Part shown: positions 1 to 64,000 of the stretch, piece by piece
Layout of the letters: each line of letters starts with the position of its first letter
Position numbering within the stretch: position 1 is the first letter of the stretch
Source of the DNA: an uncultured Actinomycetes bacterium
GTDB lineage: Bacteria; Actinomycetota; Thermoleophilia; Solirubrobacterales; Solirubrobacteraceae
Direction of reading: 5' to 3'
Assembly: GCA_963830405.1 (NCBI GenBank)
Contig: CAWHMB010000004.1
Location: 317,940 to 381,939 of the forward strand
Length of the DNA: 64,000 nucleotides
Notes under the pieces: model-generated
Seen by the model: only the letters and a program-made list of their open reading frames with translations
Databases searched by the model: none
What the model was told of the DNA's origin: nothing
Position numbers and translations under genes: made by a program

Positions 1-447
1 GCCGCCGCCGCCATCATCGTCATCGGGGTCGGGTTCGGTCTCCTTTCCACCGGGTTGGCGTTCCTGGTCGGTACGGTGCTGGCCGCGTCCATCCCGGTCG
101 CTCTGGGCGGGGGCCTGGTGCGATTGATCCGGGAGGATGGGGTAACAGTCCAGGCGGTCGCGGGGGCGCTCTCGATCTACCTGCTCGCCGGTTTGCTGTT
201 CGCGTCAGCGATCTCGTTTGTGGCTGCTGTTCAGAGCGGTCCGTTCTTCGCTCAGGCTGCCAACGTGACGAACGGCGATCGCGTGTACTACTCGTTCGCG
301 GTCCTTACGACTACGGGGTTCGGCGACTACACGCCCGCGACGCAGGTCGGGCACGCCCTCGCCGTGCTCGAGATGCTGACCGGGCAGCTGTACCTGGTCA
401 CCGTCATCGGAGTCCTTGTCGGCAACTTGGTCGCGAGGAAAAGATGA
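1..447 (+). CDS. K+ channel pore-domain (Ion_trans_2) membrane protein, 5' end outside window
   Basis: Frame open from base 1; pore motif VYYSFAVLTTTGFGDYTP followed by TM LAVLEMLTGQLYLV; paralogue of 56642..57340. Confidence 0.8.
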   Translation, partial: AAAAIIVIGVGFGLLSTGLAFLVGTVLAASIPVALGGGLVRLIREDGVTVQAVAGALSIYLLAGLLFASAISFVAAVQSGPFFAQAANVTNGDRVYYSFAVLTTTGFGDYTPATQVGHALAVLEMLTGQLYLVTVIGVLVGNLVARKR

Positions 448-512
448 ACGATCGCTCTGGCTGCCGGGCCCCCGATCGCGTTTCACAGCGCCGCGTACTC
501 CCGTCTAGCGCA

Positions 513-1082
513 TTACTTCGACGCGGCCGCGGTCGCTCGCCCGGAAGCTTCGCGAATCGCCCGCTTCTTCGCGCGGCTCACTTCCGCAATAGACGGCTGT
601 GGCACGTCGACGACTACGGTGCGGGCGAGCCAGTCCTGGAATCCGCGCCGCCGGCTGTCAAACAGGATCCGCACGAACCCGGCAAACAGCGGTAGCGCCG
701 CCAGGACGACCCCGATGCAGCGCACGACCGCCCACTTAGGCCTGACCTGCGCCCCGTCCGTCGTCAGCACCCGGATCTGCATCACGCGAGCACCCGGCGA
801 CTGTCCCGTCGTCGACCAGAAGATGACAAAGTAGGCGATCGACCCAAGGATGACCGCTGCTGCTCCGAGCGCGAGCAGGACAGTCCTCAGGGCCTGCGGG
901 ATATGCAGGAGCCCCAGGATGAGTGCGGCACCGAGTCCTGCCACGACGTCCACCAGGGCGATCAGTCCGGCGTCGATCGTGAACGAGATCGCTCTTGTGA
1001 CCAGGCCGGCATAGCGCACGTCCTGAGCGGGGGCGGTGCCCGCGGGCGCCGCACCGACCGCAGCCGCCCGCCCCCCGCTCAC
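513..1082 (-). CDS. RDD family membrane protein
   Basis: YAGLVTRAISFTID N-terminal motif, STTGQSPGARVMQIRV, RRRGFQDWLARTVVV C-terminal motif. Confidence 0.85.
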   Translation of the reverse strand: MSGGRAAAVGAAPAGTAPAQDVRYAGLVTRAISFTIDAGLIALVDVVAGLGAALILGLLHIPQALRTVLLALGAAAVILGSIAYFVIFWSTTGQSPGARVMQIRVLTTDGAQVRPKWAVVRCIGVVLAALPLFAGFVRILFDSRRRGFQDWLARTVVVDVPQPSIAEVSRAKKRAIREASGRATAAASK

Positions 1083-1618
1083 CAGCTGCTCGCCGCAGGT
1101 TCCGCGGGGAGCGCCCTCGGCGGACGGTGGGTCAGCCGTCGGGCGGCGCGCTCCATCCAGGAATCGGCCTGGCGCGACCGGCTCCGCATCTCGTCGCCGA
1201 GCTGATCGGCAAAGCCCAGCCCCTGCTCAGAGATCGCGGCGGTCACTGCCGGGCTGGCGGCGACCTCATCGACCAGGCGCCACAGGCCGTCGTCGGCCAG
1301 TAGCCGCTTGAGGAACCGGTCAAGCAGCCCGCTGTCGAACAGGCTGTCGACGAGTCGCGCGGCTGACTCGCTCGCCAGCGCTCGCTCCAGTGCCGCTTGA
1401 ATGGATGGACTGTTGAGCGCGGCGGTCAGAATCCGCTCCAACGCGTCGCTGTCGAGCACCCGATCGACCGCCCGCAGCTCCAGGCTCAGGCCCGCCTCGG
1501 CGCCAGCTTCCACCACGCCGGCTAGCGGCCTCAGCGTGGTTGTCGCCGCGCGGATGCCGAGGTCCGCGAGCGGTCGCAAGACGCGTGGTCGGAGGTTTCC
1601 TCGGGAGTCGACGGACAT
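1079..1618 (-). CDS. hypothetical helical protein, translationally coupled to RDD gene
   Basis: 179-aa ORF with 4-bp overlap into RDD start; a related remnant precedes the second RDD at 60182..60427. Confidence 0.6.
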   Translation of the reverse strand: MSVDSRGNLRPRVLRPLADLGIRAATTTLRPLAGVVEAGAEAGLSLELRAVDRVLDSDALERILTAALNSPSIQAALERALASESAARLVDSLFDSGLLDRFLKRLLADDGLWRLVDEVAASPAVTAAISEQGLGFADQLGDEMRSRSRQADSWMERAARRLTHRPPRALPAEPAASSW

Positions 1619-1661
1619 GGGTTAGCAGGGACCATCATGCCGCGCGGGAGCGCCGCTGCCA

Positions 1662-1678
1662 TCACCCAAATCAGGCGA
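1662..1678. promoter_or_regulatory. palindromic operator-like motif (2 mismatches)
   Basis: (CA)TCACCC-AAATC-AGGCGA(TG), intergenic. Confidence 0.55.
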
Positions 1679-1691
1679 TGCGTAACGACAC

Positions 1692-3275: not shown

Positions 3276-3310
3276 GATCAGCCAGCGTGGCAGAACCGGG
3301 TAGCGATCCA

Positions 3311-3327
3311 TCACCCGATGCGGGTGA
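3311..3327. promoter_or_regulatory. palindromic operator-like motif (exact)
   Basis: TCACCC-GATGC-GGGTGA in divergent gap. Confidence 0.75.
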
Positions 3328-3338
3328 GAACGCCGGGC

Positions 3339-3355
3339 TCATCCATTCCGGATGA
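3339..3355. promoter_or_regulatory. palindromic operator-like motif (exact)
   Basis: TCATCC-ATTCC-GGATGA, 28 bp after previous copy. Confidence 0.75.
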
Positions 3356-3395
3356 CGACGATGGCCGCCCGGCGGGCGATACTGGCCCGCGGTCG

Positions 3396-6767: not shown

Positions 6768-6855
6768 ATGTCCGAAGCATCCCTCTCGGGTGCCGAGGGA
6801 CATCGCCCGGATCAGGTGACGCCTACCAGCCGGCATCTCGCTTCGTTCATGGTGA

Positions 6856-8926: not shown

Positions 8927-8998
8927 ACATCCGATACTTCGGGCTTCCCACGCGCTTTAGGATCCGCAGGACGATAAGCGCCCCCGGTCGCTCCTACG

Positions 8999-9015
8999 TC
9001 ACCCCGATGGGATGA
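8999..9015. promoter_or_regulatory. palindromic operator-like motif (exact)
   Basis: TCACCC-CGATG-GGATGA upstream of the ligase gene. Confidence 0.75.
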
Positions 9016-9026
9016 CGCATTCGTCC

Positions 9027-11838: not shown

Positions 11839-11850
11839 TCACCTAGGTGA
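11839..11850. promoter_or_regulatory. short palindrome TCACC-N2-GGTGA
   Basis: TCACC-TA-GGTGA; forms the last 4 codons of MalT-like gene 1. Confidence 0.5.
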
Positions 11851-14113
11851 GCGCGCTTCTTCAACGAGGCCCAACGCGTCAGCGCGAGCAACGGCGGCTT
11901 CGCGCGAGCAGACGCTGAGCTTGCGGTAAATCGCCCGGGTGTGTGATCGGACGGTGTTCGCTGAAAGAAACAGCTCTCCTCCGATCTCCCGCGCCGACAG
12001 GTTCGTCGAGAGGAGCCGGAGTACAGCGAGCTCTGCGTCACTGGGCGGTTCGAGCACGTCGCCGTTGCTCGCCTGCCGTCTCGCCCGATTGAGCTGTTTG
12101 GCGACATCGGCGACGAGCGCCGCAACCGTTCCGCTGTCGGTGAGCTCGGTGATCTCGTCGCTTGCCTGGCGCAGCGTGTCGTCAGCTTCGTCAAGCCGGC
12201 CGCGCCGACCGCGAACCTCAGCAAGCCGGACAAGCACGCGTGCGTGGTCGACGGTCGCCACCTGGTCGCGGAAGAATTGTTCAGCGTAGGCGAACTCCCG
12301 TTCGGCGCCCGCGAAATCGCTGTCGGCCGCCAGGACGGCGCCGCTCGCTACGGAGGCATTGGCACCCAGCCAACTTCTGCTGCTGGTAATGCCGCCGATG
12401 ATTGCTCGCGCCGTTTCGGCATGGCTGCGGGCGGACGCGAGCCGTCCGCGTTCAGCCGCGATGTGGGCGAGCGTCGAGTGAGCAACGGCGTAACCGGGGG
12501 CCAGCCGCCCGGCATCGGGATGATCGACGGCGCGGATCGCCGTAGTCCATGCCTCGTCGAGCTCCCCGGCGAAGTGGAGAGCGCGTGCGAGCATGGCCAT
12601 GGCCGCGACGAGAAAGTCCTCAGCGCCAATCTGCGCAAGCTCCACCGCCTCGCGAGCTTCTCTTACAGCCGCGCCGACCCCGTTGTCGATGCCGCAGGCG
12701 CGCACAGTTGCCAGCACCGCGTCGGCGTACACCCCGAACCGTTCTGGATGCTCTGATTTCGCGCGGCTGGCGAGTTCCACCAGTCGCCGTCGCTCCAGAG
12801 TCAGCTGACCAACAATGGTCGCGGCCGTCGCCGCGGCCCCGAGCAGTTCTGGATGCCCCATGAGACAGCCGTCCGGCAGCGTTCGAGCCCAGCCGAGCAG
12901 GGCTCCGGCTCGACCATTCCTGAGCATCGCCAGGTGACATTCACTCAAAAGCTCGGCGACGAGCTCGTGGTCCCGGGCCGCGGACGCGTGCGCGATTGCC
13001 TCGGGAAACATGCCCCGTGATCGCAGCCATTCGGCGGCGCGCCGAAGGATCTCCACCGCAGCGTCGGCGTCATCGGCCGCGAGCTGGGCCGCGGCGAATT
13101 CCGCAAAGAGCGGGTGGACACGGAACCACTCTCGACGCTCGAGGCCCACCACGAACATGTTGGAGTCCTCGAGATCGGCCAGCACCGCCGCCGAGTCCTT
13201 GCGACCGAGCACGGCGTCGCACAGCTCCGTCGTGAAGGCTCTCAGGATGGCCACGCGAAGCAGGAACGAGCGGTGGTCCGCGTCGAGCGTTTCGAGCACC
13301 TCGTGGCTCAGATACTCAGCGACGTAGCGATGATTACCGCCGAACTCGAGCACGGCGCGCCCTTGATCGTCCACGTTGCGGAGCCACAGGGCGGCCAGGT
13401 ACAGCGCGGCCGGCCAGCCGTCGGTTCGATTCCGCAGAATCTCGATCTGTTCGTCTTCGAGCTGGAGGCCACCGCGGTCAACGAGTAGCTCATGCGCTTC
13501 TGCAGCTGTGAACGCAAGCTCGTCAGCGCGCAACTCGACCACGGCACCGCGGGCGCGCAAGCGCGCCAGCCCCAGCGCGGGGTCAGCACGCGTGATCACA
13601 ACCAGACGCGCCGTCGCCGGGAGCCGATCGATCGCGTACTCTAGCGACGCAAGGCACCCCGTATCCGTAACGGTTTGAAGGTCGTCCAGCACGATTGTCA
13701 ACTGACGCCCGAACGCGAAGATCCCATTCATGAGCTCGTCCACGGTGACCTTGATCGGGATCCCGGGTACCTGAAGCCGCTTCAGCGCTCGACGGCCGAG
13801 TCCCTCGCGGACTCGATTGACCGCGAGCGACAACATATGTCCACAGCCGTGCGGGATCGTTGTCCTCGACGTCGAGTGTCACCCAGGCAAAGGCAGCGTC
13901 CGTGCTCTCGCACCAGGCGCGGACCGCCGTTGTCTTGCCGTAACCGGGCGGCGCCGCGACGAGCGTCAGGGCGGCGTCCGTACCGGCCCCGAGCGCCTGC
14001 GCGATGCGCGGGCGCTGCACCATCCCGCGTCGCTGCCTCGGCGGGGCGAGCTTGGCCTCGGACGGAGGGGGTGGCCCCTCCGCGAGAGGTAGCTCAGCAG
14101 ACTTTGCACCGAC
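11839..14113 (-). pseudogene. MalT-like STAND ATPase/LuxR-HTH regulator 1, split by a 1-bp frameshift near 13825
   Basis: ORF 13583..14161 has EAKLAPP and APPGYGKT; ORF 11839..13836 has VLDDLQ, DGWPAALYL and a LuxR HTH (SANTVRSHTRAIYRKL); removing one G at 13825 gives LWTYVVAAVNRV. Confidence 0.8.
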
Positions 14114-14200
14114 CCCTGTCCGGAAAGGGTGATTCCGCAAGGGCGCAAGTCGATCAGCCATCTCCCCCCGTTAGGTTCGACCGTTGCCGGCTGCTGGTCC

Positions 14201-14217
14201 TCACCCGAAAGGGGTGA
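14201..14217. promoter_or_regulatory. palindromic operator-like motif (exact)
   Basis: TCACCC-GAAAG-GGGTGA upstream of MalT-like gene 1. Confidence 0.75.
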
Positions 14218-14282
14218 TCCTGCTGGGCTCACGTAAGAAGCGGGCGCGGCGCTAATCAAGCGTGACGTCACTGCATGCTCGA

Positions 14283-16940: not shown

Positions 16941-17025
16941 CCCTCCGGTCTGGCCGAACCTGCAGTACCCGTGTCGCCTATTAGTCTCACGGCACGTATG
17001 GTGGTCCTCTCGCCGGGCCGCTCCA

Positions 17026-17042
17026 TCACCTCATCGGGGTGA
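17026..17042. promoter_or_regulatory. palindromic operator-like motif (1 mismatch)
   Basis: (CA)TCACCT-CATCG-GGGTGA in divergent gap. Confidence 0.65.
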
Positions 17043-17128
17043 GGGCCCGCTCGTGCTGGGAAGGGTGCCGACCTTTCTCAGGCCGCGCCCGGCGGGTCGG
17101 GTAACGTTTATCTGAGGCTCGACGGGGT

Positions 17129-17467: not shown

Positions 17468-17502
17468 TCTCGGGGCGCCACCTAACCCTTGGGTGGTCTG
17501 AA

Positions 17503-17519
17503 TCACCCGGATCGAAGGA
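17503..17519. promoter_or_regulatory. weak copy of operator-like motif
   Basis: TCACCC-GGATC-GAAGGA(TG), 2 mismatches. Confidence 0.35.
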
Positions 17520-17713
17520 TGCACGCGAAGGCAGCGCGAGGACGGCGCTGATCGCCGGTGCTGCCCTGGGACTCGCGCGGGTCGTGTCATCAGCGCCCGG
17601 GCTGGCGCTGGCGATCGACGACTTCGAGGCCGAAGACTCACGGGTGACCCGACTCGGCGCGGCGCCCACGAAGGACGTGCTCGCGCTCATCGACGAGTGC
17701 GAGCCGTCGATAG

Positions 17714-18310: not shown

Positions 18311-18453
18311 GGTTGACAGAGCTTGCCCACCCATGGTCCGGCCGAGCACCGCGCCGCGCATCGTCCGGATCAGGTTACGTCCGGCTCCGGCGTCGAACTT
18401 GCACTCAGCTGGTCAGGATGGGGGCGCGACCGGCAGGTTCAGCTCTTCGGCCG

Positions 18454-21754: not shown

Positions 21755-21826
21755 CCGGTTAGTCGGCCAAATGAGGGCTCCGCTTGTTTCCTGGCCGCAG
21801 CGTCCGTGTCATCGTGCGGCTCGTCA

Positions 21827-21843
21827 TCATCCCAATCGGGTGA
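21827..21843. promoter_or_regulatory. palindromic operator-like motif (exact)
   Basis: (CA)TCATCC-CAATC-GGGTGA. Confidence 0.75.
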
Positions 21844-22277
21844 TCGCGGCCCTTCTCCGAGCGCAAACCGAGTGTCTCGGAATCATCGTTGCGGCAGGTT
21901 CTTCTCGGCGCCGGCCGGCGTGGGACTGCTGGTTGGCGAACAACGCGGAAGCGCTAGCCTAGGCCGAATTGCGCCAGCCGTGGATACTCGGACGCACGAC
22001 GTTTGAGTGCTCGGCAGCGCGATTGGTCAGGAGGCGTCGAGCGGTGCTGGTTGGTGATCGTCTCAGCCCATCGAGCAAGCGTCGGAGCAAGTGAGGCCGC
22101 GCATACTCGAGTGTGACATTCCGAATGCGCCTTCTCCAGTCCACCGTTACGCGTACAGATTGGCTGCCATAAAGCGGGAGTCGCGCTTAACCAATCGTGA
22201 TGTCGTTCATTCTGCCGAGGAGCGCACGGCGCCGTGCGCGACGGGTCCAGCCACAACGTCTGATTGACGCGGGTTGA

Positions 22278-24552: not shown

Positions 24553-24586
24553 CCTTCGATGTTCCGCGCCGCAGCGGCCGTCGTCC

Positions 24587-24603
24587 TCGTCCGTTTCGGG
24601 TGA
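24587..24603. promoter_or_regulatory. palindromic operator-like motif (1 mismatch)
   Basis: TCGTCC-GTTTC-GGGTGA in 77-bp divergent gap. Confidence 0.65.
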
Positions 24604-24629
24604 AGCGATAATGTGAGAGCCTCAACGGC

Positions 24630-31487: not shown

Positions 31488-31627
31488 CCGCACCCCCTAA
31501 CTCGGTCGTCCTCGCCGTACCGGCGAAGCATACCCAGCTCCCGAGCGACCTCCATTGGCGCGCCAGCGAGCCCGGTGTCCGCCCTGAACCCGCAGCTGAA
31601 GACCGTCACGGTACGGGTCCGTGCATT

Positions 31628-31644
31628 TCACCCGTTTCGGTCGA
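31628..31644. promoter_or_regulatory. operator-like motif (2 mismatches)
   Basis: TCACCC-GTTTC-GGTCGA(TGC); near-identical to 59702 copy, both upstream of CMD-A genes. Confidence 0.6.
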
Positions 31645-31717
31645 TGCGCTGATGCTCCGAGCCTTCGATTGTGGGTCTCCACGCAGTCGTCGGATCGGAT
31701 CTCTGAAGGGAGACCAT

Positions 31718-32828: not shown

Positions 32829-32842
32829 ACATCGCCGTCTCA

Positions 32843-32859
32843 TCACCCACCTTGGGCGA
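32843..32859. promoter_or_regulatory. palindromic operator-like motif (1 mismatch)
   Basis: (CA)TCACCC-ACCTT-GGGCGA(TG). Confidence 0.7.
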
Positions 32860-32896
32860 TGCGGACCAAGACGTGCGAAGTACGCTCGGCTGCCAC

Positions 32897-35596: not shown

Positions 35597-35640
35597 GCAG
35601 TATTCATGTGGCGCCGCTTTGTCGCCCCCTGAGTTGTCTC

Positions 35641-36333
35641 TCATCGACACCCATCCCGCAAGGTGGCACGCCACCACGTTGCGAGGGGTGGCACCACCCC
35701 CTTTTCATGGGTCTCCGCTGATTCTTTTGGGATCACCCCGTTCGCGTGATGCGCCCGGTGCAGAGCGCTCCTAGTCTTGGATGTGCGGTCGCTCGAAGTA
35801 ATTGGCACGGCCGCGGCCACGGTCGTGCCACCTCCGGCCTGGGAGTCGATGTCGAGGTGACCGTGGACCGCGGCTAGCCGGTCGCGCATGTTGCGCAGCC
35901 CCACCCCGTCGTGAGCGGCGGCAACGTCGAACCCGGGACCGTCATCGCTCACATCGAGGTGAAGTTCGTTGGCGTCGGCATACAGCCGGATTGAGATGTG
36001 GGTCCCGGGGCCGCCGTGCTTGGTGGCGTTCTGGACCGCCTCCAGGCAGCAGAAGTACAGCGGCGCTTCGAGCTCGGGCGCAAAATCGCCGGCGTGCTCC
36101 TCGGTGAACGTGACCCGCCTGGCCGAACTGGCAGCCAGGAGTCGGAGCGTGCCGGCCAGCCCGGAGTTGGCGAGCACCGTGGGGTAGATCCCGCGGCCGA
36201 GGTCGCGGAGCTCATCGATCGCTACTTCGAGCTCCTCTGCCAACTCGCTCAGCCGGGCGCGCAGCTCGGGCTGATCGGACGTCATCTCGCCGGCAAGGTC
36301 GCCTCTACGACTAGCTGCCACCGCCGCCCCCAA
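35641..36333 (-). pseudogene. sensor histidine kinase C-terminal fragment (HATPase only)
   Basis: IDELRDLGRGIYP, EAVQNATKH, DDGPGF, GVGLRNMRDRL, GGGTTV; no H-box (compare ERDIHDG in 61688..63538) and no sensor domain. Confidence 0.7.
35733..35749. promoter_or_regulatory. palindromic operator-like motif (1 mismatch)
   Basis: TCACCC-CGTTC-GCGTGA(TG) upstream of MalT-like 2. Confidence 0.65.
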
Positions 36334-36770
36334 TGATGCAGCGAGCCGGCTGAAGTCCTCGGGGAGAACCGGAGTTGCGCCCGGAGGGCGTGCGAAGAAT
36401 CAGGCGAAGTGTTGATCAAGGTCAGCGCGGTGTCCAAACAGAGGAAGCACTAGTCACGGCCTCCGGATGTGTATGAGCAGCACCCGCCAACCCTGGCGCG
36501 CCGCCGTGGGCCGCCCGCGAGCGTGAGCGATCTGTTTGGATCGGCTACTGCTATCAGTTACCGCAGCGCAGCCGACCTTAGACAGCAGTATACCGCTCGG
36601 TCTCGGGATCCTGTGAACGCCTCGATACCTCGGGAGGATGGGTCTGTGGCACCGCAGCCTGTAATCCCCAGGAGAGCCGCTCATTCGTTGTCGAGGCACA
36701 CCGCTAAGCAGCGCTCACCCAGGGCTAGGGCATGCTTGAGCGAATATTCAGGCACAACATTCTGTCCGCA

Positions 36771-36787
36771 TCACCCACTTCGGTGGA
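36771..36787. promoter_or_regulatory. operator-like motif (2 mismatches)
   Basis: (CA)TCACCC-ACTTC-GGTGGA(TG). Confidence 0.6.
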
Positions 36788-36823
36788 TGCGGGATTAGGA
36801 GGTCGCCCTTAGCGTCCTAGACG

Positions 36824-38126: not shown

Positions 38127-38262
38127 GAGCCTCCTTCAGCACCCGCGGCTCGCCTGGGTAGTCGATCGAGTTGCGGCGTCAACATCACGGGGAACTGGTC
38201 GGCGCTTAGCCACCGCTCATGCCTGGCTGAATCGAGGCTAGAGCGCCGCCAGACGGCGGGCA

Positions 38263-38279
38263 TCACCCTGTTGGGATGA
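38263..38279. promoter_or_regulatory. palindromic operator-like motif (exact)
   Basis: (CA)TCACCC-TGTTG-GGATGA. Confidence 0.75.
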
Positions 38280-38577
38280 GCCTCGAGGGCGAGGATCGGC
38301 CGGAGGCCTTGGTCCATGCGGGTGTTCGCTGGCGGCGTTGACACCTGCTGGCCTCGTATGCCGCCCGCACGCGGGGAGCCTGTGAGCGTGACGGTGTCGA
38401 TGCCTGATGGGGGTCGTCGCTGGGCTCGACCGAGTGCACGCAACCGCCGCGGCGACGATGGCCGCCCATTGGGCCCGGTGGGAGGTGTGATTCCGACTGC
38501 GATGCCGAGCAGCGCGAGACCGAATTGGATTCCCACGCGCCAAACGCTTGCGTCGTACGTCTGCTTACCGGTTCTCA

Positions 38578-38594
38578 TCACCCTATCTGGAGGA
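38578..38594. promoter_or_regulatory. palindromic operator-like motif (1 mismatch)
   Basis: (CA)TCACCC-TATCT-GGAGGA(TG). Confidence 0.65.
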
Positions 38595-38685
38595 TGCGGC
38601 GTCGGCCGCCCGGGTCCAAGGTTCCACGTGTTACACAACAGGCCCGCCGCGCGAAGACCTTGTGGGGGCCAATCGGGGAGGACTC

Positions 38686-39121: not shown

Positions 39122-39131
39122 GACACGGGTT

Positions 39132-39148
39132 TCGTACGAATCGGGTGA
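39132..39148. promoter_or_regulatory. operator-like motif (2 mismatches)
   Basis: TCGTAC-GAATC-GGGTGA(TG). Confidence 0.5.
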
Positions 39149-39227
39149 TGCGGCCCGATCATGGTGCGCTTTCATCAAGCGCATCGCGCACGACCGCGAC
39201 TGACGTTAGCGACACAAGCGAGGGGCA

Positions 39228-41823: not shown

Positions 41824-42096
41824 GGCTGGCCGGTTCCGTCCGACTCAGAAGAACGCGGCGCCGGTCGCCTCAGAAGTACGCGGCGTCGGTTGACTGGGCG
41901 TGGTCAATCGGAACGATTGCTGAGCAGAACCCAGAGGAAGGTGGCCATGCCGCTCCCTTTCGACGCGCCGATCCGTCCGACCGGCTGGTGTCGCCAAGTT
42001 TCGGTCGCGGCGGAGGGTCGGGCAAGGTTGTAGACACCCAGGCATCGGTGTGCCGACAGGTGTGTCGACAGGCATCGTCGCCCAACATAGGGGTGA

Positions 42097-42113
42097 TCAC
42101 CCGATCAGGATGA
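42097..42113. promoter_or_regulatory. palindromic operator-like motif (exact)
   Basis: TCACCC-GATCA-GGATGA(TG). Confidence 0.75.
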
Positions 42114-42148
42114 TGATCGCGGGCGTTCCATGACAGTAGCTTTGGACG

Positions 42149-44756: not shown

Positions 44757-44766
44757 CCGCGGGTAA

Positions 44767-44783
44767 TCACCCGATGCAGGTGA
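44767..44783. promoter_or_regulatory. palindromic operator-like motif (1 mismatch)
   Basis: TCACCC-GATGC-AGGTGA. Confidence 0.7.
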
Positions 44784-44805
44784 ACTTGCCGCGGCTGTTG
44801 AGGGC

Positions 44806-45815: not shown

Positions 45816-47126
45816 TCAATGCCCCTCACCCGAACTGGATGATCCCGCCGCGGCCGGCGCGGGCCGGGCCGGGCCGGCTGGTCGATGGGCAGCGGTCGGG
45901 ACGCTCTCCATCGTCGGTAGCCGCTCTCGCTTGTGCGAGCGATACCAGCGCGCGTAGCGATCGGCGAGCGGCGCCGCGGACATGCCGTGGGCCACCACGG
46001 AAAGCCCGACGGTGACATACGTCGTTAGGAGGATCGTCTGCACGTGCGGCAGGTGCGAGCCTTCGACGACGATCACCGCAAAGACGATCGAGGCCAGGCC
46101 CCGCGGCCCGAACCAGCCGAGGAACGCGAGCGTCGGCCAGCGGGCGCCCGTCCCCAGCATGGCGATCGCCACCGGCAGCATGCGGACGGCCGTTAGACTG
46201 AGCGCGGCATAGGCGACGATGCTCCAGCTCAGGTGGGCAAGCGCCGGTCCGAGCAGGACCGCGCCGAACGCAAGGAATGTCAATCCGTCGAGCAGCGCGC
46301 CCAACCCGTCGTTGAAGCGGGAGGCGTCGTCCGATTCCCGGACCAAGGCTCCGAACAGCATGCCGGCGAGGAATGCGGCGATGAAACCGGAGCCGCCGAG
46401 GGCGGCGGCGACGCCGTAGGCGAGCGTGGCTCCGGCCACCGGGATGACCTGCAGCCACGTGTCGGCGATCAGCTCCGTGCGCCGGCCGATCCCCACGACA
46501 GCCGCGACGAGGAGGCCGGCGCCCGCGCCGCCCAACAGGCCGTAGCCGATCTCCTCGGCGACAATCGTGATCGCATGGTGCCCGTTGGCTACATGCGACT
46601 CGACGTCGGCCGCTGCGAGCACGATGAACAAGAGCGGGACGCAGATGCCGTCGTTGAGGCCGCTCTCGACGTTCAGACCTTGCCGGATCCTCGACGGGAG
46701 CCGCTGATCGCTGACGACGGCTTGTCCGAGCGCCGCGTCAGTGGGCGCCAGTAACACCGCCAGCACCAGCGCCTCAGCGATCGTGAGCTGATTGAAGATG
46801 ACGGCTGCCAGCAACGCGCCGAGGCCGATCGTCAGTGGCAGCCCGACGCCGAGCAGCCGCAGCGGCACGACGTACTCGCGACGTAGCGCATCGAGCCGGA
46901 TTCGCGACGCGTCGGCGAACAGGACCACGGCGAGTGTCGCCTCGGCCAGTGTCCGGACCGCCGCGCCGCCCGGCGAAGGATCGACTTCGCCGGCGACCTC
47001 AGGTCCGATCAGCACGCCGAGCGCGACGAACACCATCGCTGTGGTCACCGGAGTGCCCGAAAGGCGACGCGACACGGCAGCGACGCCGAGCACCGCGAGC
47101 GCCACGATGGCCAAAGACCAGCTCAT
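45816..47126 (-). CDS. cation:proton antiporter (CPA1/NhaP-like), copy 2
   Basis: LAPTDAALG, NVESGLNDG, GWFGPRGLASIVF; close paralogue of 5490..6767. Confidence 0.9.
   Translation of the reverse strand: MSWSLAIVALAVLGVAAVSRRLSGTPVTTAMVFVALGVLIGPEVAGEVDPSPGGAAVRTLAEATLAVVLFADASRIRLDALRREYVVPLRLLGVGLPLTIGLGALLAAVIFNQLTIAEALVLAVLLAPTDAALGQAVVSDQRLPSRIRQGLNVESGLNDGICVPLLFIVLAAADVESHVANGHHAITIVAEEIGYGLLGGAGAGLLVAAVVGIGRRTELIADTWLQVIPVAGATLAYGVAAALGGSGFIAAFLAGMLFGALVRESDDASRFNDGLGALLDGLTFLAFGAVLLGPALAHLSWSIVAYAALSLTAVRMLPVAIAMLGTGARWPTLAFLGWFGPRGLASIVFAVIVVEGSHLPHVQTILLTTYVTVGLSVVAHGMSAAPLADRYARWYRSHKRERLPTMESVPTAAHRPAGPARPAPAAAGSSSSGEGH
45826..45842. promoter_or_regulatory. palindromic operator-like motif (exact)
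   Basis: TCACCC-GAACT-GGATGA in antiporter 3' tail, just upstream of FGE. Confidence 0.7.
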
Positions 47127-47192
47127 GACGCGTGCAGAGGTCCTCCTTCGGAAATGGGGGAGCCAGTCTCTGCCGAAGCGACCTGGCCGGCA

Positions 47193-47209
47193 TCCCCCTC
47201 AACGGGTGA
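47193..47209. promoter_or_regulatory. palindromic operator-like motif (1 mismatch)
   Basis: (CA)TCCCCC-TCAAC-GGGTGA. Confidence 0.55.
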
Positions 47210-47259
47210 GGGCGTGGTGCCGACCAGCCGCACGGCCCGCAGCGATTCTGGATCACAGA

Positions 47260-47276
47260 TCACCCGATGCGGATGA
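47260..47276. promoter_or_regulatory. palindromic operator-like motif (exact)
   Basis: TCACCC-GATGC-GGATGA(TG) upstream of arylsulfatase. Confidence 0.75.
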
Positions 47277-47362
47277 TGTCCGGGCGTTGCGGTCTGGGAG
47301 CGTTGTGTTGCACGCCGCTCCGCGCGTATCAACCAGATCCTTTGTGAATTGAGGCAGCCACG

Positions 47363-51271: not shown

Positions 51272-51381
51272 CGCAATCGCTCTCTCTCTCGCTCGTTAGG
51301 GGGACACCCCACGATGCTCCCCACACGGGCCTGGAGCCAGCCAGGGTGCGAGCACCACGCTCGAGTGGGGGAGACGCATTC

Positions 51382-51398
51382 TCATCCTGATCGGATGA
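51382..51398. promoter_or_regulatory. palindromic operator-like motif (exact)
   Basis: TCATCC-TGATC-GGATGA in divergent gap. Confidence 0.75.
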
Positions 51399-51443
51399 CG
51401 TACCTCGCCCCACCCCTGGGACAATCGGCCTAGCTCATTTGCG

Positions 51444-52919: not shown

Positions 52920-52921
52920 AC

Positions 52922-53272: not shown

Positions 53273-53307
53273 AGCTGTCGATGCTAGGTTCGGCGGCCGG
53301 CAGCGCA

Positions 53308-53324
53308 TCGCCTGAACCGGATGA
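53308..53324. promoter_or_regulatory. operator-like motif (2 mismatches)
   Basis: (CA)TCGCCT-GAACC-GGATGA between CMD-B and MalT-like 3. Confidence 0.6.
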
Positions 53325-53482
53325 GGTTCTGCGCCTCCCGATCGGCGAGGATCGGTGGTGGACCGTGGACAAACGCGTCACGAGCTGGCTATGCCGGCGC
53401 CCGATCACAGTGGTAGGCGCATCCCGGATTAACGCAGGCGCACCACCTTGTCGGTATGACCGTCTGCGCGGACGATTAGGCG

Positions 53483-55666
53483 GTGCCCGGTGCAACGGCT
53501 CTGGACGGCGAGCTGGTGACAGTCGAGCATGCTCGGCAGCCGTTTGCGATCGACCTACCCGATGCCAAGTTCAGAGCTCCCCGGGCGTGCGGGGCTCTCG
53601 CTCGCCGCAGCGAGCTGCTTAGGCGTCTGGAACGCGAGCGGGCGCATCCCCTTGTCCTCTTGACGGCGCCGGCGGGTTACGGCAAGACGACCCTGTTAAA
53701 GCAGTGGACCGAAGAAAGTCGGCGCCCGTTTGCGTGGGTGATGCTCGACGAAGTCGACGGTGACTCGGAGGGCATCGCCGATTCGATTGCCTACACCCTG
53801 GCTACGATCGGAATCGAGCCCAGTCTCAGACGCAGCTTCGTGCTGGTCCTGGATGACGCTCATGTCGTCCCGCCCGGAGTTTTGAAAGACGCGCTGCTCG
53901 GCGTCCTGGGTTGGCTCCCCGAGGGCTGCCAGATAGCTGTGGCTTCGAGGTGCGCACCGCCGCTGGCACTCGGCCGAATGCGGGCTCAGCAGATGCTCGT
54001 CGAGCTAGGAGCCGGGGACCTCTCGCTGTCGGCCGTCGAGGCGAGATGTGCGCTTCGGGGGAGCGCGCTCGAGCTGGACTCGAACGCCGTCCAGGCCCTC
54101 GTCACTCGGGCGGAGGGGTGGCCTGCGGCAATCGGACTGGCGGCGACCTTGTGGGCCCAGCCTGAGCAGGCGGAGAACCCATCCGAGCTGAGGGGAGACG
54201 ACCACGCGATCTCCGAATACTTCCGCACAGAGGTGCTAGCCGGGCTTTCGGCCCCGGCTACCCGCTTCTTGATGCGCAGTTCGGTGCTCGAACGCTTGTC
54301 GGGAGAGCTGTGCGACGAGGTGCTTGAACGCAAGGGGTCGGCGAGTCTGTTGGCCGAGCTGGCACGTGCGAACCTGCCGCTGCGCACGGTCGATGCCAGC
54401 CACGAGTGGTATCGCGTCCACGGCCTGCTCCGAGAGATGCTGCAGACAGAGCTTCGGCGAACCGAGCCGGAGCTTCCCGCCGTGCTGCATAGGCGGGCGA
54501 GTGACTGGTGGCGCAGAGCGGGAGACATAGACCGCGCTATTGACCACGCCCGTAAGGGAGAGAATCTCAAGCTCACCGGTGAGCTTCTGTGGGCACACCT
54601 CCCCCGGTATTTGGGCGAGGGAAACAACCACATGGTCCAGGGCTGGCTGGAAGGAGTCGCAGCCGAGCGGATCAAGGGATGTGCGCCACTTGCGCTCGTG
54701 GCGGCACACAGTCATCTGGCGTCTGGTCGCGTTGCCGTCGCGGAGCAGTGGGCTCGGTCGGCGGCTGTCAGCTTTTCTGAGGCCAACGAGGGCCCGACCA
54801 GTCCCGAGCGGGCCGGCGTGGCCATGATCGAGGCGTGGAACGCACGCCATGGAGCAGCGGTGATGGGGGACGACGCACGTCGCGCGTATGAGCTGCTGCC
54901 CGCCGACAGTGCGTGGCGAGCGAGCTGCTGCTTCCTGCGTGGCACCGCGGCGCTGCTGATTGGCGACGAGGCCGAAGCTGAGCGGCACCTCGATGAGGGA
55001 CTGGCACGCGGCACCGTGCTGGCACCGATCACCGCGTCGTTGTGTCTTGCGCAGCTGGCCATCCTCGCCTCGCAGCGACATCAGACCGACTATGCGTCAG
55101 ACCTGGCCTGGCGCTCCCATTCCGTCGCCGACGAGCGCCAGCTCGGCGACTACCCCACCTCAGCACTGGTGTTGGCCGTCTATGCCGCGGCCGCCATGCG
55201 CGAGGGCCGCGTCGATGAGGCAAAGGCGACCGTGTCTCAATGTCTGGGCCTGCTCGATCGGCTCGACGATGTCGTCTGGCTCCGCTCCGAAGTTCTAATC
55301 CTGCTTGGGCGGGTCTCGCTAGCTCTCGGCGACGTTGCGCGCGCCCGCGAGCTACTCGCGGATGCTTCGCGATACGCACGTCGAGTGCGCGGCGTGGCCG
55401 CCTTCCAGCGGTGGTTCGATGATGCCTGGAACGAGTTTGATGCACGCGCTGAGGTAGCGCTTACCGGAGTCGCCGCGCTGACGACCGCAGAGCTTCGAGT
55501 TCTCCGGTTCCTGCCGACGCACTACTCATTCCACGAGATCGCGGTACGGCTGCACGTATCGTCGAATACCGTCAAGACTCACGTCCACGCCGTGTATCGC
55601 AAGCTCGATGCGTCCTCCCGCTCACAAGCGGTCGCACGGGCGCTCGATTCCGGGCTCCTGAGCTAG
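53483..55666 (+). CDS. MalT-like STAND ATPase/LuxR-HTH regulator 3
   Basis: DAKFRAP, APAGYGKTT, VLDDAH, EGWPAAI, SSNTVKTHVHAVYRKL. Confidence 0.9.
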   Translation: MPGATALDGELVTVEHARQPFAIDLPDAKFRAPRACGALARRSELLRRLERERAHPLVLLTAPAGYGKTTLLKQWTEESRRPFAWVMLDEVDGDSEGIADSIAYTLATIGIEPSLRRSFVLVLDDAHVVPPGVLKDALLGVLGWLPEGCQIAVASRCAPPLALGRMRAQQMLVELGAGDLSLSAVEARCALRGSALELDSNAVQALVTRAEGWPAAIGLAATLWAQPEQAENPSELRGDDHAISEYFRTEVLAGLSAPATRFLMRSSVLERLSGELCDEVLERKGSASLLAELARANLPLRTVDASHEWYRVHGLLREMLQTELRRTEPELPAVLHRRASDWWRRAGDIDRAIDHARKGENLKLTGELLWAHLPRYLGEGNNHMVQGWLEGVAAERIKGCAPLALVAAHSHLASGRVAVAEQWARSAAVSFSEANEGPTSPERAGVAMIEAWNARHGAAVMGDDARRAYELLPADSAWRASCCFLRGTAALLIGDEAEAERHLDEGLARGTVLAPITASLCLAQLAILASQRHQTDYASDLAWRSHSVADERQLGDYPTSALVLAVYAAAAMREGRVDEAKATVSQCLGLLDRLDDVVWLRSEVLILLGRVSLALGDVARARELLADASRYARRVRGVAAFQRWFDDAWNEFDARAEVALTGVAALTTAELRVLRFLPTHYSFHEIAVRLHVSSNTVKTHVHAVYRKLDASSRSQAVARALDSGLLS

Positions 55667-56082: not shown

Positions 56083-56120
56083 CTCAGGTTGGAGGCTCCT
56101 AGCCGGATCCCCACTTCGCC

Positions 56121-56137
56121 TCGCCCCGATCGGGTGA
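56121..56137. promoter_or_regulatory. palindromic operator-like motif (1 mismatch)
   Basis: TCGCCC-CGATC-GGGTGA(TG) in divergent gap. Confidence 0.7.
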
Positions 56138-56189
56138 TGCTGCTAGAGCCCGCTCGGGGGATGCTCACCCGTGGAAACCGATCGGGAGG

Positions 56190-56639: not shown

Positions 56640-56641
56640 TC

Positions 56642-58905: not shown

Positions 58906-58985
58906 GTCACAGAAGCGCTCAGGAGAAGCTCGCAACCGACCCGGGCGGCTTATCACGTTGCGCGAGCCAACCCGGATGCATAATT

Positions 58986-59681
58986 GTGAGGATGGTTCTG
59001 CGCGTGGCGCTAGCCGACGACAGCTACCTGGTCCGTGAGGGATTGCGCCAGGTGCTGGGTGGAGTCCAGGAGCTGGAACTGATCGCAATATGCGATGACG
59101 TCTACTCTCTCGTCGAGGCGATTGATAACGATCGCCCGAATGTCGTCGTAAGCGATATCCGCATGCCGCCTTTCCGCGACCGCGAGGGCATTCGTCTGGC
59201 CGGCCAGCTTCGTGAGACTCATCCAGAGATCGGCGTGGTGATCCTCAGTCAGTACGCCGATCCCAGCCTCGCACTGGACTTGTTTCGGTCCGGGTCCGAG
59301 GGGCGGGCGTATCTACTCAAGGAGCGGGTCGCAGAGCGCGGCGAGCTGGTGAACGCGATCCAAGCGGTCGCGGACGGTCGTTCGGTGGTCGACCCGAAGA
59401 TCATCGACGGGCTGATCGCCCACCGCGTGCGTTCGTCGCAATCCCCACTCGATGAGCTCACGGCGCGCGAACGCGAGGTGCTCGCGGCCGTTGCGGCCGG
59501 CAAGAGCAACGCTGCGATCGCGGCTTCGCTGTTTCTGACCAAGCGAGCCGTCGAAAAACATATAAATGCGATCTTCATGAAACTGAATTTGCGCGAGTCC
59601 GAAGACACGAGCCGGCGCGTAATGGCCGCGCTGATATTCCTCGCCGATGAAGACATGCAAGCGGGTTCGCCCGAGATCTGA
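58986..59681 (+). CDS. NarL/FixJ family response regulator
   Basis: LADDS, VSDIRMPP, YLLKE, LTAREREVL...GKSNAAIA...AVEKHINAIFMKL. Confidence 0.9.
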   Translation: MRMVLRVALADDSYLVREGLRQVLGGVQELELIAICDDVYSLVEAIDNDRPNVVVSDIRMPPFRDREGIRLAGQLRETHPEIGVVILSQYADPSLALDLFRSGSEGRAYLLKERVAERGELVNAIQAVADGRSVVDPKIIDGLIAHRVRSSQSPLDELTAREREVLAAVAAGKSNAAIAASLFLTKRAVEKHINAIFMKLNLRESEDTSRRVMAALIFLADEDMQAGSPEI

Positions 59682-59701
59682 GCGCCCGGCGTCCGCAAAT
59701 C

Positions 59702-59718
59702 TCATCCCTTTCGGTCGA
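59702..59718. promoter_or_regulatory. operator-like motif (2 mismatches)
   Basis: TCATCC-CTTTC-GGTCGA(TGC). Confidence 0.6.
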
Positions 59719-59792
59719 TGCGGGCCCGCTGGGTTGGCTCGAGAGTAGATCGGTAGTGCAGCCGTCGATCGATCTTCCGAAGGGAGAGCCAC

Positions 59793-60140: not shown

Positions 60141-60150
60141 GTGATCTGAG

Positions 60151-60427: not shown

Positions 60428-60443
60428 CGGGACAGCGATCCTC

Positions 60444-60890: not shown

Positions 60891-60901
60891 CGGAACGCAC
60901 G

Positions 60902-61588: not shown

Positions 61589-61687
61589 TGATCCTGGGGA
61601 ACGGACGCGGATCGGAGCGTTGCTCGGCTGCTCACCGGTTCCAGGCTGACGTTACTAATCCGACCGTGGTGCCTTTGGACCGATCGT

Positions 61688-63538
61688 TCAAACGACGGCG
61701 GATCTACGCCGCAGCTCCAGTGGTGAGGCTGGGATGGTTGCTGCGATCGTGGTGCCCCGGTCAGGACCAGACTGAATCCTGAGCCTCCCTCCGACAGCGG
61801 CTAGCCGGTCGCGCAGATTTCTGAGGCCGGTGCCTGGTCGCTGATTCTCTGCATCAAAGCCAAGGCCGTCGTCGTGGACCTCGAAATTCAGCTCCTCGTC
61901 TTGCCAAACCCTGACGGAGACGCAGGTCGCACCTTCAGCGTGCTTGACCGCGTTCTGCACGGCCTCCGAGCAAGAGAAGTAGAGCGTCGTTTCAATCGGG
62001 CGCGAGTACCGGCCGAGCCCTTCCGCGTAGACAGTCGTGGGAAGGCCTGTGGCCCTGGCGAGCATTGTCAGCGCTCCTCGCAGTCCGGTCTCCGCGAGCT
62101 CCGTGGGGTAGATCCCGTGGGCGAACGACCGGACCTCGTCGATCGTCGCATCGACCTCCTGTCCCAACGCACGGACTAGATCTCCTCCGGCGGCGTCCTG
62201 ACAGCCGATCTGCTCGGCGGCCAGTGCCAGCTTGATCCGCAGTGAGACGAGACGCTGCTGCGCACCATCGTGTATATCTCGCTCAATCTTCCGCCGCTCG
62301 CGACGTTCGGCATTGACGCCGACCGCCAGTGCTTCGGCGAGTTCCTTGAGCGAGGAACGCAGCTTTTCGCTGAGTCGATAGTTCTCGAGCGCGGCCAGCG
62401 CGTAGGATCCGGCCGTCTCGACGAGTCCCTGGTCCTCGGAGAGCGCTGGGTCGTGGACGACCGCGACCCGCCAGCTACCGTTCGCGATCTCGGTCACGGC
62501 ATGCTCGATCCCATCCTGGGGCATCGGGACCTGCTTGCCGGATTCGTCAAGCCACGCTCCGCCGTCATCCGGGAATGAGCGCAGGATCTGTAACGACGGG
62601 TCCTCGAGCGCGTCGGCCATCGCGCGGCCGGCCCCTAACTGATCGGCGCCGGTTTTCAGTTCTCGCGCGATTTGATCCAGCACCTTGGCGGCGAACAGGC
62701 GTCGATAAAGTCGGCCCGCTGCGGCTGCCAGCGCGACGGCGGGGAGGGACAGCACGTAGATCCAGCTCAGGACATGCAAGCTCGCAGTATCAGGGCCGGC
62801 CGCCCGGGCACGGAAGTAAACGGCGAGGATGACGACTTGAGCGACCGCGATCAGCGCAATCGGGCTGTTCATCCGGCGCAGCAGCGCTCCCGAGTTCCGC
62901 GCGCGCTGAATCACCATTGCCGCCACCGCGATAAGCACCGCGACCGTCAGGAGCTCGCGGAGCGGTTCGACGACGTTGGCCACCAGCGCCGGCGTCGAAT
63001 TGGCAAGCGCAAACGCGTTTCGCGGGCAGCCCCCCGTGCACATCGACCACGGCGAGGGGTTCGGGTACTGAGCAATCAGGGCTGTTGGCAGGTAGAGCAG
63101 CGCGACGAGAAGCGCCCCGGCGCCGAATAGTCGCCTGGAAACAGTCTCAGTCAGTCGCCCCGATGGGTAGCTGAGCAGCAGGTACACGACCGCCAGCTCG
63201 GCGAGCCATTGGCTCACCCGACCGGCGCTGTAGACGGTGGATTCGGGTGATCCGGCGAGCGCCGAGAGCGACCACACGAGCCCGCAGGCGATCAATACGC
63301 GCGCGAAACGGAGATCCTGTCCCCGCGCCAGATTGTAGAGCCCGACGCCAAACACGGCTGCCGCGCCGGACAGGAACACAGCTAGTGCGATGCTGCGGCT
63401 GCCTTGCGGTGCGCTGAGGAGCGCCGACCCAACGACGACGGTCGTGCCCAGGCAGACGGTGAGCGGCATCGCCAACCGCTTCGCGATCGGCACCGGAGGG
63501 CGCAACGCGAGCGAGGTCTGCTGAGTTAGCTCGTCCAC
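61688..63538 (-). CDS. membrane sensor histidine kinase (HisKA_3/NarX-like)
   Basis: About 7 TM, IERDIHDGAQQRLV H-box, EAVQNAVKH, DDGLGF, GTGLRNLRDRL; start uncertain (ORF open to 63721). Confidence 0.9.
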   Translation of the reverse strand: MDELTQQTSLALRPPVPIAKRLAMPLTVCLGTTVVVGSALLSAPQGSRSIALAVFLSGAAAVFGVGLYNLARGQDLRFARVLIACGLVWSLSALAGSPESTVYSAGRVSQWLAELAVVYLLLSYPSGRLTETVSRRLFGAGALLVALLYLPTALIAQYPNPSPWSMCTGGCPRNAFALANSTPALVANVVEPLRELLTVAVLIAVAAMVIQRARNSGALLRRMNSPIALIAVAQVVILAVYFRARAAGPDTASLHVLSWIYVLSLPAVALAAAAGRLYRRLFAAKVLDQIARELKTGADQLGAGRAMADALEDPSLQILRSFPDDGGAWLDESGKQVPMPQDGIEHAVTEIANGSWRVAVVHDPALSEDQGLVETAGSYALAALENYRLSEKLRSSLKELAEALAVGVNAERRERRKIERDIHDGAQQRLVSLRIKLALAAEQIGCQDAAGGDLVRALGQEVDATIDEVRSFAHGIYPTELAETGLRGALTMLARATGLPTTVYAEGLGRYSRPIETTLYFSCSEAVQNAVKHAEGATCVSVRVWQDEELNFEVHDDGLGFDAENQRPGTGLRNLRDRLAAVGGRLRIQSGPDRGTTIAATIPASPLELRRRSAVV

Positions 63539-63824
63539 CGGTAGGACCCCGGGCTCTGAGGCGGGGACCCACAACACTGAGCAGCCCGGCGGCGACTCAC
63601 GAAAGCAGTGCGTACACGGCGGTACCTGGTCATGTGGGTCCCATTGGTATGTGGAATCGACTACGAACCGAGGCGGTGTAGCCGGCCTGCGACCGTTAGC
63701 CCACTTCGCATCTGCGCGCAATGCCCCAGACGATCAGAGACCCCCTATGAAGCATCGCCTCCAAAAGGCTACCACTGCCAACTGGCTCGCCCAAAAATGC
63801 GGAATGGTGGGGTTCTGGCGCAGC

Positions 63825-63841
63825 TCATCCTTTTGGGGTGA
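63825..63841. promoter_or_regulatory. palindromic operator-like motif (exact)
   Basis: TCATCC-TTTTG-GGGTGA(TG) upstream of DUF1269 copy 2. Confidence 0.75.
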
Positions 63842-63910
63842 TGCTCCCCGCGTGTCGGCGCGCGACGGTTGCCGTCAGCACCAGCAACAAAGGAGAAAGG
63901 AGAGTTAGCA

Positions 63911-64000
63911 ATGGCAACTCTGATTGCAATCGGCTATCCGGATCAGACGACCGCCGAGGATGCGAGGCAGACCGTCCAGCGTCTCGAGGCGGATCTGATC
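63911..64000 (+). CDS. DUF1269 family protein, copy 2 (runs off window)
   Basis: MATLIAIGYPDQTTAEDARQTVQRLEADLI vs MATLVAIGYPDQETAEQARATVSRLEADLI; RBS AAGGAG. Confidence 0.85.
   Translation, partial: MATLIAIGYPDQTTAEDARQTVQRLEADLI

Follow-up and report, generated by a model that had tools for sequence, protein, structure and literature searches.

A stretch of 64,000 nucleotides of contig CAWHMB010000004.1, from an uncultured bacterium of the Solirubrobacteraceae, is quite probably part of a MalT-box regulon island, in which one or more resident MalT-like STAND-LuxR proteins activate genes through a 23-bp palindromic box. The whole stretch, called the window below, encodes three such proteins (M1, M2 and M3), and about half of its transcription units carry the box in their promoters. 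A regulon of this kind, a large genomic region activated by MalT, is already known, and the window is a larger case of it in a deep-branching uncultured actinobacterial order. An earlier note on this DNA knew of no described system with such an operator and gene set, and had itself named an existing description as grounds for giving up its hypothesis. Droste et al. 2020 (PMC7567727) describe one, in Actinoplanes sp. SE50/110, where MalT (ACSP50_3915) activates a region of 51 genes. We found no follow-up literature to that paper on the MalT-box region.

The operator consensus is gcATCACCCgaWtcGGGTGATgc, from an alignment of 135 sites taken from the window and 37 orthologous loci. These loci (L001-L037) are Solirubrobacterales sequences orthologous to the M3 locus, and together with the window they make up a sample of 791 kb. 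The half-sites follow the pattern TCAYCC-N5-GGRTGA, with C favoured at position 4 (74% C), and the central base is A or T in 135 of the 135 aligned sites, though it lay outside the search pattern. A search of the window for TCACCC-N5-GGGTGA with at most one mismatch returned 15 copies, against 0.2 expected from 200 dinucleotide-preserving shuffles. A 23-bp matrix was trained only on the other loci, with the window excluded, and was used with a threshold of 12 bits. It found 28 sites in the window, again against 0.2 expected, and the scores were bimodal, with none between 8 and 13 bits. As in the region of Droste et al., a palindromic box of this type stands upstream of many genes in one region. 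The three sites to which the earlier note had drawn attention, at 14201, 35733 and 53308, are real and score 25.7, 24.2 and 21.0 bits. The full sample holds 231 boxes, and 73% of them fall outside ORF (open reading frame) bodies (19% of the sequence). The box is conserved across the Solirubrobacterales, enriched, and geometrically fixed with respect to the -10 element and to start codons.

The distance from the box centre to the first start codon peaks at 43-47 nt (60 observed versus 11 expected, p = 1e-26). In this class of promoters the A..T of the -10 hexamer lies 11-14 nt before the start codon, and sequences resembling a Shine-Dalgarno site are present in 10 of 65, compared with 52 of 104 promoters with a longer, leadered distance. 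Many of the targets are predicted to be leaderless, given a start codon at this distance of 43-47 nt and the lack of a Shine-Dalgarno sequence. Counted from the box centre, the A..T signature of the -10 begins at +31 to 33 in 57 of the 65 leaderless promoters and in 88 of the 123 leadered ones. It is present on at least one side of the box in 206 of 230 sites, versus about 13% at control offsets, and on both sides in 45 of 230 (about 20%), versus at most 1% at control offsets. The promoter grammar is a 23-bp palindrome, a 22-nt gap and nAnnnT, and the promoters have no -35 consensus of their own. Since the -10-like nAnnnT stands at a fixed distance from the box, the box centre would lie near -43, and since it is centred there, the proximal half-site would take the place of the -35 hexamer. 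With transcription start sites (TSS) predicted from the -10 and from the leaderless starts, the 3' end of the 17-mer falls about 35 nt from the start. Judged by these spacings, the geometry is that expected of a class-II-type activator site. A SigF/SigB-like promoter (GGGTA -10) was considered as a different identity for the motif and rejected, as the motif is a symmetric palindrome with a separate nAnnnT -10 located 22 nt downstream.

About one fifth of the boxes are predicted to serve two divergent promoters. At L003:12633, L004:7895, L010:12624 and L021:3542 the palindrome lies almost midway (about 43-47 nt each way) between divergent leaderless starts, and the same arrangement is seen in the window at 53316, 56129, 36779 and 31636. 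One dimer site appears to drive both divergent genes at such midway palindromes.

The earlier note had called the three regulators MalT-like, and domain and structure matches agree. All three have a C-terminal GerE helix-turn-helix (HTH) domain (PF00196; 1.8e-10, 1.8e-8 and 5.7e-11), and M3 matches the MalT NOD structure 8bob (PDB) at 7e-29. Matches to TPR_MalT (PF17874) reach 24-26 bits, under the 45-bit cut-off, and precomputed PF17874 matches are listed for many orthologues. The Walker A/B motifs are those of a P-loop NTPase (NOD): GYGKTT/LVLDDAH in M3, GYGKST/VVLDDAN in M2 and GYGKTT/IVLDDLQ in M1. Outside the HTH the three proteins are 31-46% identical (M2 versus M3, 46%). Their recognition helices are LSANTVRSHTRAIYRKL, VSVNTVKTQAHAIYRKL and VSSNTVKTHVHAVYRKL, and the segments quoted in the earlier note (SANTVRSH, SVNTVKTQ and SSNTVKTH) are correct by translation. 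M3 has more than 4000 homologues, and all the named ones are metagenome-assembled genomes (MAGs) of Solirubrobacteraceae.

The earlier note also placed an operator upstream of each MalT-like gene, which held to different degrees. For M1 it stands: its box is centred at 14209, 48 nt away from the ATG at 14161, with a -10 (GAACCT) and a predicted TSS at about 14166. The M3 site is shared: M3 lies 167 nt away from it, and a divergent leaderless CMD-like gene 44 nt away. The CMD-like arrangement is kept in 25 of 25 site-bearing loci (window included), and a -10 (GAsGAT) points toward M3 from the same box in 16 of those 25. The M2 site is taken up below, with other points that do not favour MalT-like control.

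In Actinoplanes, genetic evidence ties the same box to a MalT-like activator. There, 17 mapped TSS are preceded by the motif 5'-TCATCC-5nt-GGATGA-3', which overlaps the -35 and whose 3' end is 34.4 +/- 1.0 nt away from the TSS (PMC7567727). Deletion of malT lowers the expression of 42 of the 51 genes and overexpression raises 39 of 51 (PMC7567727). The region contains two MalT-like genes, its expression rises during growth and on maltose, and the maltose-utilisation genes are unaffected (PMC7567727). It encodes DUF1269 (two copies), diacylglycerol kinase (DAGK), class II glutamine amidotransferase (GATase) and MFS proteins, and its relatives add SHOCT and DUF2252 (PMC7567727, Tables S3, S4). 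The window has the same palindromic TCAYCC-N5-GGRTGA box at an equal promoter position (its TSS being predicted ones), with 31-32 nt between the box centre and the A of the -10. Both regions are large and contiguous, most of their genes are uncharacterised or code for membrane or transport proteins, and at least two MalT-like regulators lie inside (three here). The gene content overlaps in part (DUF1269, DAGK, class II GATase and MFS, with SHOCT and DUF2252 in the Actinoplanes relatives), and maltose-utilisation genes are in neither region. There are also differences. Actinoplanes belongs to the Micromonosporaceae, whereas the window comes from the class Thermoleophilia (Solirubrobacterales) and is known from sequence alone. 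The half-site is GGATGA there, while GGGTGA is preferred here. The region here is larger: its 28 boxes extend over at least 62 kb, and it has three MalT-like paralogues and a conserved adjacent DevR-like two-component system. It is rich in CMD-like, SfLAP, PRC, ion-channel, sulfatase and FGE genes and makes prominent use of leaderless and bidirectional promoters, and the arginine-deiminase operon is absent from the window.

The half-site is also the core of the E. coli MalT box, GGA(T/G)GA, as Droste et al. remark (PMC7567727). Like MalT of E. coli and Klebsiella, the MalT-like proteins here join a STAND NTPase to a GerE HTH, with a putative helical sensor region as well, and the E. coli core matches GGRTGA, with the proximal site overlapping the -35. 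The E. coli MalT recognition helix (TIKTH) is similar to NTVKTH here. In E. coli the MalT boxes are asymmetric decamers that stand in direct-repeat arrays; a few mal promoters use them, some with help from CRP. In the window, unlike E. coli, there is a single inverted repeat per promoter, at dozens of promoters, and there are no maltodextrin genes.

A further island was found in Nonomuraea gerenzanensis (L038; NZ_LT559118.1, 8.085-8.126 Mb), where a tandem pair of MalT-like genes has 10 boxes next to it within about 24 kb, compared with 0-1 in each of four other 50-kb regions. Clustering relative to the rest of a genome was shown in Nonomuraea only. The MalT-like helices of this island read NTVKTH..SIYRKL, and genes for DUF1269, DUF7144 (three copies), SHOCT and RDD are present in it. 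Its boxes are less strict about the central A/T. The 11.85-Mb chromosome is filed as a plasmid in PLSDB and is almost unannotated. Distant MalT-like genes on Streptomyces, Deinococcus and Chroococcidiopsis plasmids (helices KAY, LRTH and IKWH) had no box cluster, which suggests that the box is specific to a MalT-like subfamily and not to LuxR-STAND proteins in general. The box is co-located with MalT-like genes in three actinobacterial orders, and because of the Actinoplanes and Nonomuraea islands the MalT-like protein is seen as the regulator that always accompanies it. The proposal of the earlier note that MalT-like regulators drive the box-bearing genes gains support, by analogy, from the Actinoplanes genetics and the Nonomuraea clustering, and the assignment of the regulator is likewise supported by homology to the experimentally studied Actinoplanes system.

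In the proposed mechanism, the palindrome is most likely bound by HTH dimers of at least one of the resident regulators (M3, M2 or, should its gene be intact, M1). The bound protein at about -43, with the proximal half-site on or abutting the -35, would recruit RNA polymerase in a class-II-type manner, and the symmetric box would be able to serve two divergent promoters. Activation would require ATP and a ligand, by analogy with E. coli MalT. As the regulators sit inside their own regulon, positive feedback may operate. Which protein binds, what the inducer is and what physiological role the regulon has are steps that we infer, and activation rather than repression is taken by analogy from the Actinoplanes deletion and overexpression. 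The role may be that of a stationary-phase or ion/osmotic-stress type of programme, and the gene set is suggestive of a programme for ion, envelope or general stress.

Several observations weigh against control by the MalT-like proteins. The box near M2, centred at 35741 and 64 nt upstream, is without a properly spaced -10 toward M2. M1 is frameshifted. The presumed base-contacting positions differ among the paralogues (KTH, KTQ and RSH), and because of this M1, M2 and M3 may not all recognise the same box. The Actinoplanes assignment itself rests on genetics, and the paper reports no binding assay (PMC7567727). Sequencing runs holding near-identical sequence are soil-metagenome DNA only, with zero RNA runs. 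Three more points concern a two-component system beside M3, which the earlier note did not consider: a NarL/DevR-type response regulator (RR) and a HisKA_3 histidine kinase, the two components of a DevR/DosR-type system. M3, the RR and the kinase are syntenic in about 32 of the 37 Solirubrobacterales loci (53483-63721 in the window, about 10000-21000 in L001-L037). The RR and kinase genes are themselves often box-bearing (14 and 15 cases). Box density is flat to 10 kb on either side of M3 and over all 64 kb of the window, and because of this co-location with any one regulator is weak evidence within the Solirubrobacterales.

These points lead to a different explanation, which we consider unlikely, in which the box is bound by the RR after phosphorylation by the HisKA_3 kinase, the genes form a DosR-like dormancy regulon, and the MalT-like genes are mere targets. 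Palindromes of about 20 bp that overlap the -35 are typical binding sites of GerE-type RR dimers, which would suit the box. The closest solved relative of the RR is DevR/DosR. No protein of the locus is more conserved than the RR (70-80% identity), and its helix, LTKRAVEKH[IV]N[AS]IF, is invariant across loci; the helix of M3 is nearly invariant as well. The boxes at the RR and kinase genes would also fit. The DevR/DosR-DevS regulon of Mycobacterium tuberculosis resembles the island in its GerE-family dimer site of about 20 bp overlapping the -35 and its many poorly characterised stress genes, and the island encodes a DevR-like RR and a HisKA_3 kinase. However, the box is unrelated in sequence to the Dev box, and the motif accompanies MalT-like genes and not the RR. 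In the Nonomuraea island no RR or kinase homologue was found at E < 1e-6, and in Actinoplanes the same box is under a MalT-like activator and the regulators of the region are two MalT-like proteins only. The RR helix also has Glu where MalT, NarL and DosR have the base-contacting Lys. The RR was down-weighted as the binder because of the Actinoplanes and Nonomuraea evidence, and it is itself probably a member of the regulon.

The position of the box, overlapping or abutting the -35, is a common one for repressor operators, and the genes could be de-repressed when a repressor that occludes the -35 leaves. This is improbable, as the promoters have no -35 consensus of their own, the rigid geometry and the roughly 20% of symmetric bidirectional boxes are typical of activator-dependent promoters, and in Actinoplanes expression falls when MalT is lost and rises when it is overexpressed. 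The palindrome could also fold, with a 6-bp stem and a 5-nt loop, as an RNA hairpin (leader or terminator), or be a dispersed repeat, and not be a protein site at all. We give this almost no credence. In leaderless promoters the box stands some 43 nt ahead of both the start codon and the predicted TSS and would therefore not be transcribed; the hairpin was rejected on this ground and because no Rfam family matches the box. As we read them, the C/A versus U/G asymmetries are independent of gene strand, and the unit is just 23 bp, conserved across orders and locked to a -10 element.

Activation by MalT-like proteins, as proposed here, reveals no new kind of regulatory mechanism. What the analysis adds is the 23-bp consensus with its central W, the fixed -10 spacing, the use of the box in leaderless and bidirectional promoters, and the link to a two-component system. 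The result connects one under-noticed Actinoplanes paper to very abundant uncultured soil bacteria, and extends the MalT-box large genomic region over at least three actinobacterial orders. With this grammar, the regulon, leaderless starts and bidirectional promoters can be predicted by computation even where a genome has no expression data. By their shared box, the DUF1269, DUF2252, DUF7144, CMD-like, SfLAP and PRC proteins are marked as candidate members of one co-regulated programme. It is possible, though we hold it only tentatively, that this is an ancient Actinomycetota-wide stationary-phase or ion/osmotic programme and not a maltose response, in which STAND-LuxR paralogues with different sensors feed different signals into one box. 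In the Solirubrobacterales it would then have grown to cover dozens or hundreds of promoters, leaderless and often bidirectional, and have been coupled to the DevR-like system.

Regulator genes and boxes of the window. Box scores are matrix scores in bits; targets, -10 elements and TSS are predictions. Empty cells: no entry.
Feature	Position	Strand	Bits	Description or predicted target	Basis
M1	11839..14161	-		MalT-like STAND-LuxR, split by frameshift	Pfam, translations
M2	33263..35677	-		MalT-like STAND-LuxR, 804 aa, helix VSVNTVKTQAHAIYRKL	Pfam
M3	53483..55666	+		MalT-like STAND-LuxR, 727 aa, helix VSSNTVKTHVHAVYRKL, Walker A APAGYGKTT, Walker B LVLDDAH	Pfam
RR	58986..59681	+		NarL/DevR-type response regulator (receiver + GerE)	Pfam; best PDB match DevR 3c3w, 2.7e-21
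Kinase	61688..63721	-		HisKA_3 histidine kinase, 677 aa, N-terminal 470 aa without Pfam domain	Pfam
Box	1659..1681		22.7	- direction -10 CATGAT, TSS ~1627; CMD-like 1079-1618, then RDD 513-1082
Box	3308..3330		24.4	Perfect core; leaderless DUF2252 1845-3275 (-)
Box	3336..3358		19.4	TCATCC/GGATGA type; holin_4_2/phosphodiesterase 3396-5444 (+)
Box	6800..6822		21.7	Leaderless Na/H exchanger 5490-6767 (-)
Box	8996..9018		23.4	GCS2 7706-8926 (-), leader ~38 nt
Box	14198..14220		25.7	Perfect core; M1 (-); site 14201 of the earlier note
Box	17023..17045		18.5	DAGK 15651-16940, then DUF1269 14966-15562 (-)
Box	17500..17522		15.0	Weak; no correctly spaced -10 on either side, function doubtful
Box	18358..18380		13.1	Weak; PAP2 17714-18361 (-)
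Box	21824..21846		27.1	LOR-like 21413-21754 and downstream K-channel gene (-)
Box	24584..24606		22.0	Leaderless pyridine-nucleotide-disulphide oxidoreductase 23092-24552 (-)
Box	31625..31647		21.9	-10 on both sides; candidates CMD-like 31652-32065 (+) and uncharacterised gene 30939-31493 (-)
Box	32840..32862		13.5	Weak; just after stand-alone receiver gene 32412-32828
Box	35730..35752		24.2	Within 3' end of HATPase gene; sole -10 plus-directed; site 35733 of the earlier note
Box	36768..36790		20.4	Bidirectional; leaderless CMD 36824-37150 (+); minus promoter could reach HATPase gene and M2
Box	38260..38282		24.2	SfLAP/GAP 37446-38126 (-)
Box	38575..38597		20.1	YccF 38662-39090 (+)
Box	39129..39151		22.2	Upstream of uncharacterised gene 39228-39794; -10 geometry ambiguous
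Box	42094..42116		25.7	Leaderless ClC channel 42149-43558 (+)
Box	44764..44786		18.8	SfLAP/GAP 44055-44756 (-)
Box	45823..45845		23.7	Junction of Na/H exchanger stop and FGE start; no correctly spaced -10 found
Box	47190..47212		15.6	Na/H exchanger 45816-47126 (-)
Box	47257..47279		27.5	Sulfatase 47363-49717 (+)
Box	51379..51401		21.5	TCATCC/GGATGA type; PRC-barrel 51444-52091, then SfLAP 52164-52919 (+); frameshifted DUF2252 on other side
Box	53305..53327		21.0	Bidirectional; leaderless CMD-like 52922-53272 (-); M3 (+), TSS ~53359; site 53308 of the earlier note
Box	56118..56140		24.9	Bidirectional; CMD 55705-56082 (-); plus unit with K channel 56588-57340, possibly reaching RR gene
Box	59699..59721		19.5	CMD 59793-60140, then RDD 60477-60890 (+)
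Box	63822..63844		23.4	112 nt upstream of kinase gene; -10 plus-directed, toward gene past window end

The genes of the window, which is about 66% G+C, were mapped with an ORF listing, a codon-usage caller and Pfam. Multi-copy families are CMD-like (six), SfLAP/GAP (three), DUF2252 (two), PRC (two) and stand-alone receivers (two), and there is one HATPase gene. Further families are DUF1269, DUF7144, YccF, RDD, SHOCT, K+ channels, ClC and Na+/H+ exchangers, and DAGK, PAP2, a sulfatase with FGE, GCS2, class II GATase and MFS are also present. The target families proposed in the earlier note are borne out by Pfam (DUF2252, DUF1269, CMD, SfLAP/GAP, YccF, PRC, ClC, Na/H exchanger, DAGK, sulfatase and FGE). 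Homologues of the MalT-like proteins and of the RR are overwhelmingly soil-metagenomic, and the named ones are Solirubrobacteraceae or Solirubrobacterales MAGs. The block at about 22-31 kb consists of ordinary metabolic genes, and the part at about 25.7-31.5 kb (molybdenum-cofactor oxidoreductase, enoyl-CoA hydratase, DyP-like and DUF4331 genes) is box-free. Within it, a 116-aa ORF at 25745-26095 (-) matches only the N-terminal third of an MFS transporter, and because the match is limited in this way the ORF is probably a gene remnant.

CMD/AhpD-like genes are the commonest target family, with 56 members in the window and the loci together. The six in the window are related and each has a box before it (1079-1618, 31652-32065, 36824-37150, 52922-53272, 55705-56082 and 59793-60140). 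The arrangement around the box at 56118..56140 recurs at about 12600 in most loci. A tandem duplicate of the RR gene was seen in six loci (L001, L002, L011, L021, L027 and L036).

In M1, an N-terminal ORF (13583-14161) holds the Walker A motif PPGYGKTT and the main ORF (11839-13836) holds the part with the weak TPR_MalT match and the GerE domain. A 1-nt frameshift separates them, with its junction near 13830-13850, where the N-terminal frame ends ...DPARLWTYVV and the main frame resumes SLAVNRVREGLG. The junction is at no obvious homopolymer, and the frameshift is either a real pseudogene or an assembly error. Beside M2, a 230-aa protein with HATPase_c only (35641-36333, -) overlaps the M2 start, and a stand-alone receiver (32412-32828) follows M2. 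The bidirectional box at 36779 may drive M2 and the HATPase gene upstream of it as one transcript, and the HATPase protein and the receiver may serve M2 as minimal phospho-signalling partners of its own.

The second DUF2252 gene is split (49786-50685 / 50702-51271, -), with its junction near 50700-50715 beside a TTTT run, which could be a long-read homopolymer error or a pseudogene. A tRNA-Leu(GAG) at 41086-41172 (-) overlaps the 5' end of the longest PRC-barrel ORF (40206-41129), so the true PRC-barrel start must be further downstream. A 647-aa ORF at 56962-58905 (+), with a C-terminal SHOCT match only, was missed by the codon-usage caller and overlaps the K-channel ORF at 56588-57340.

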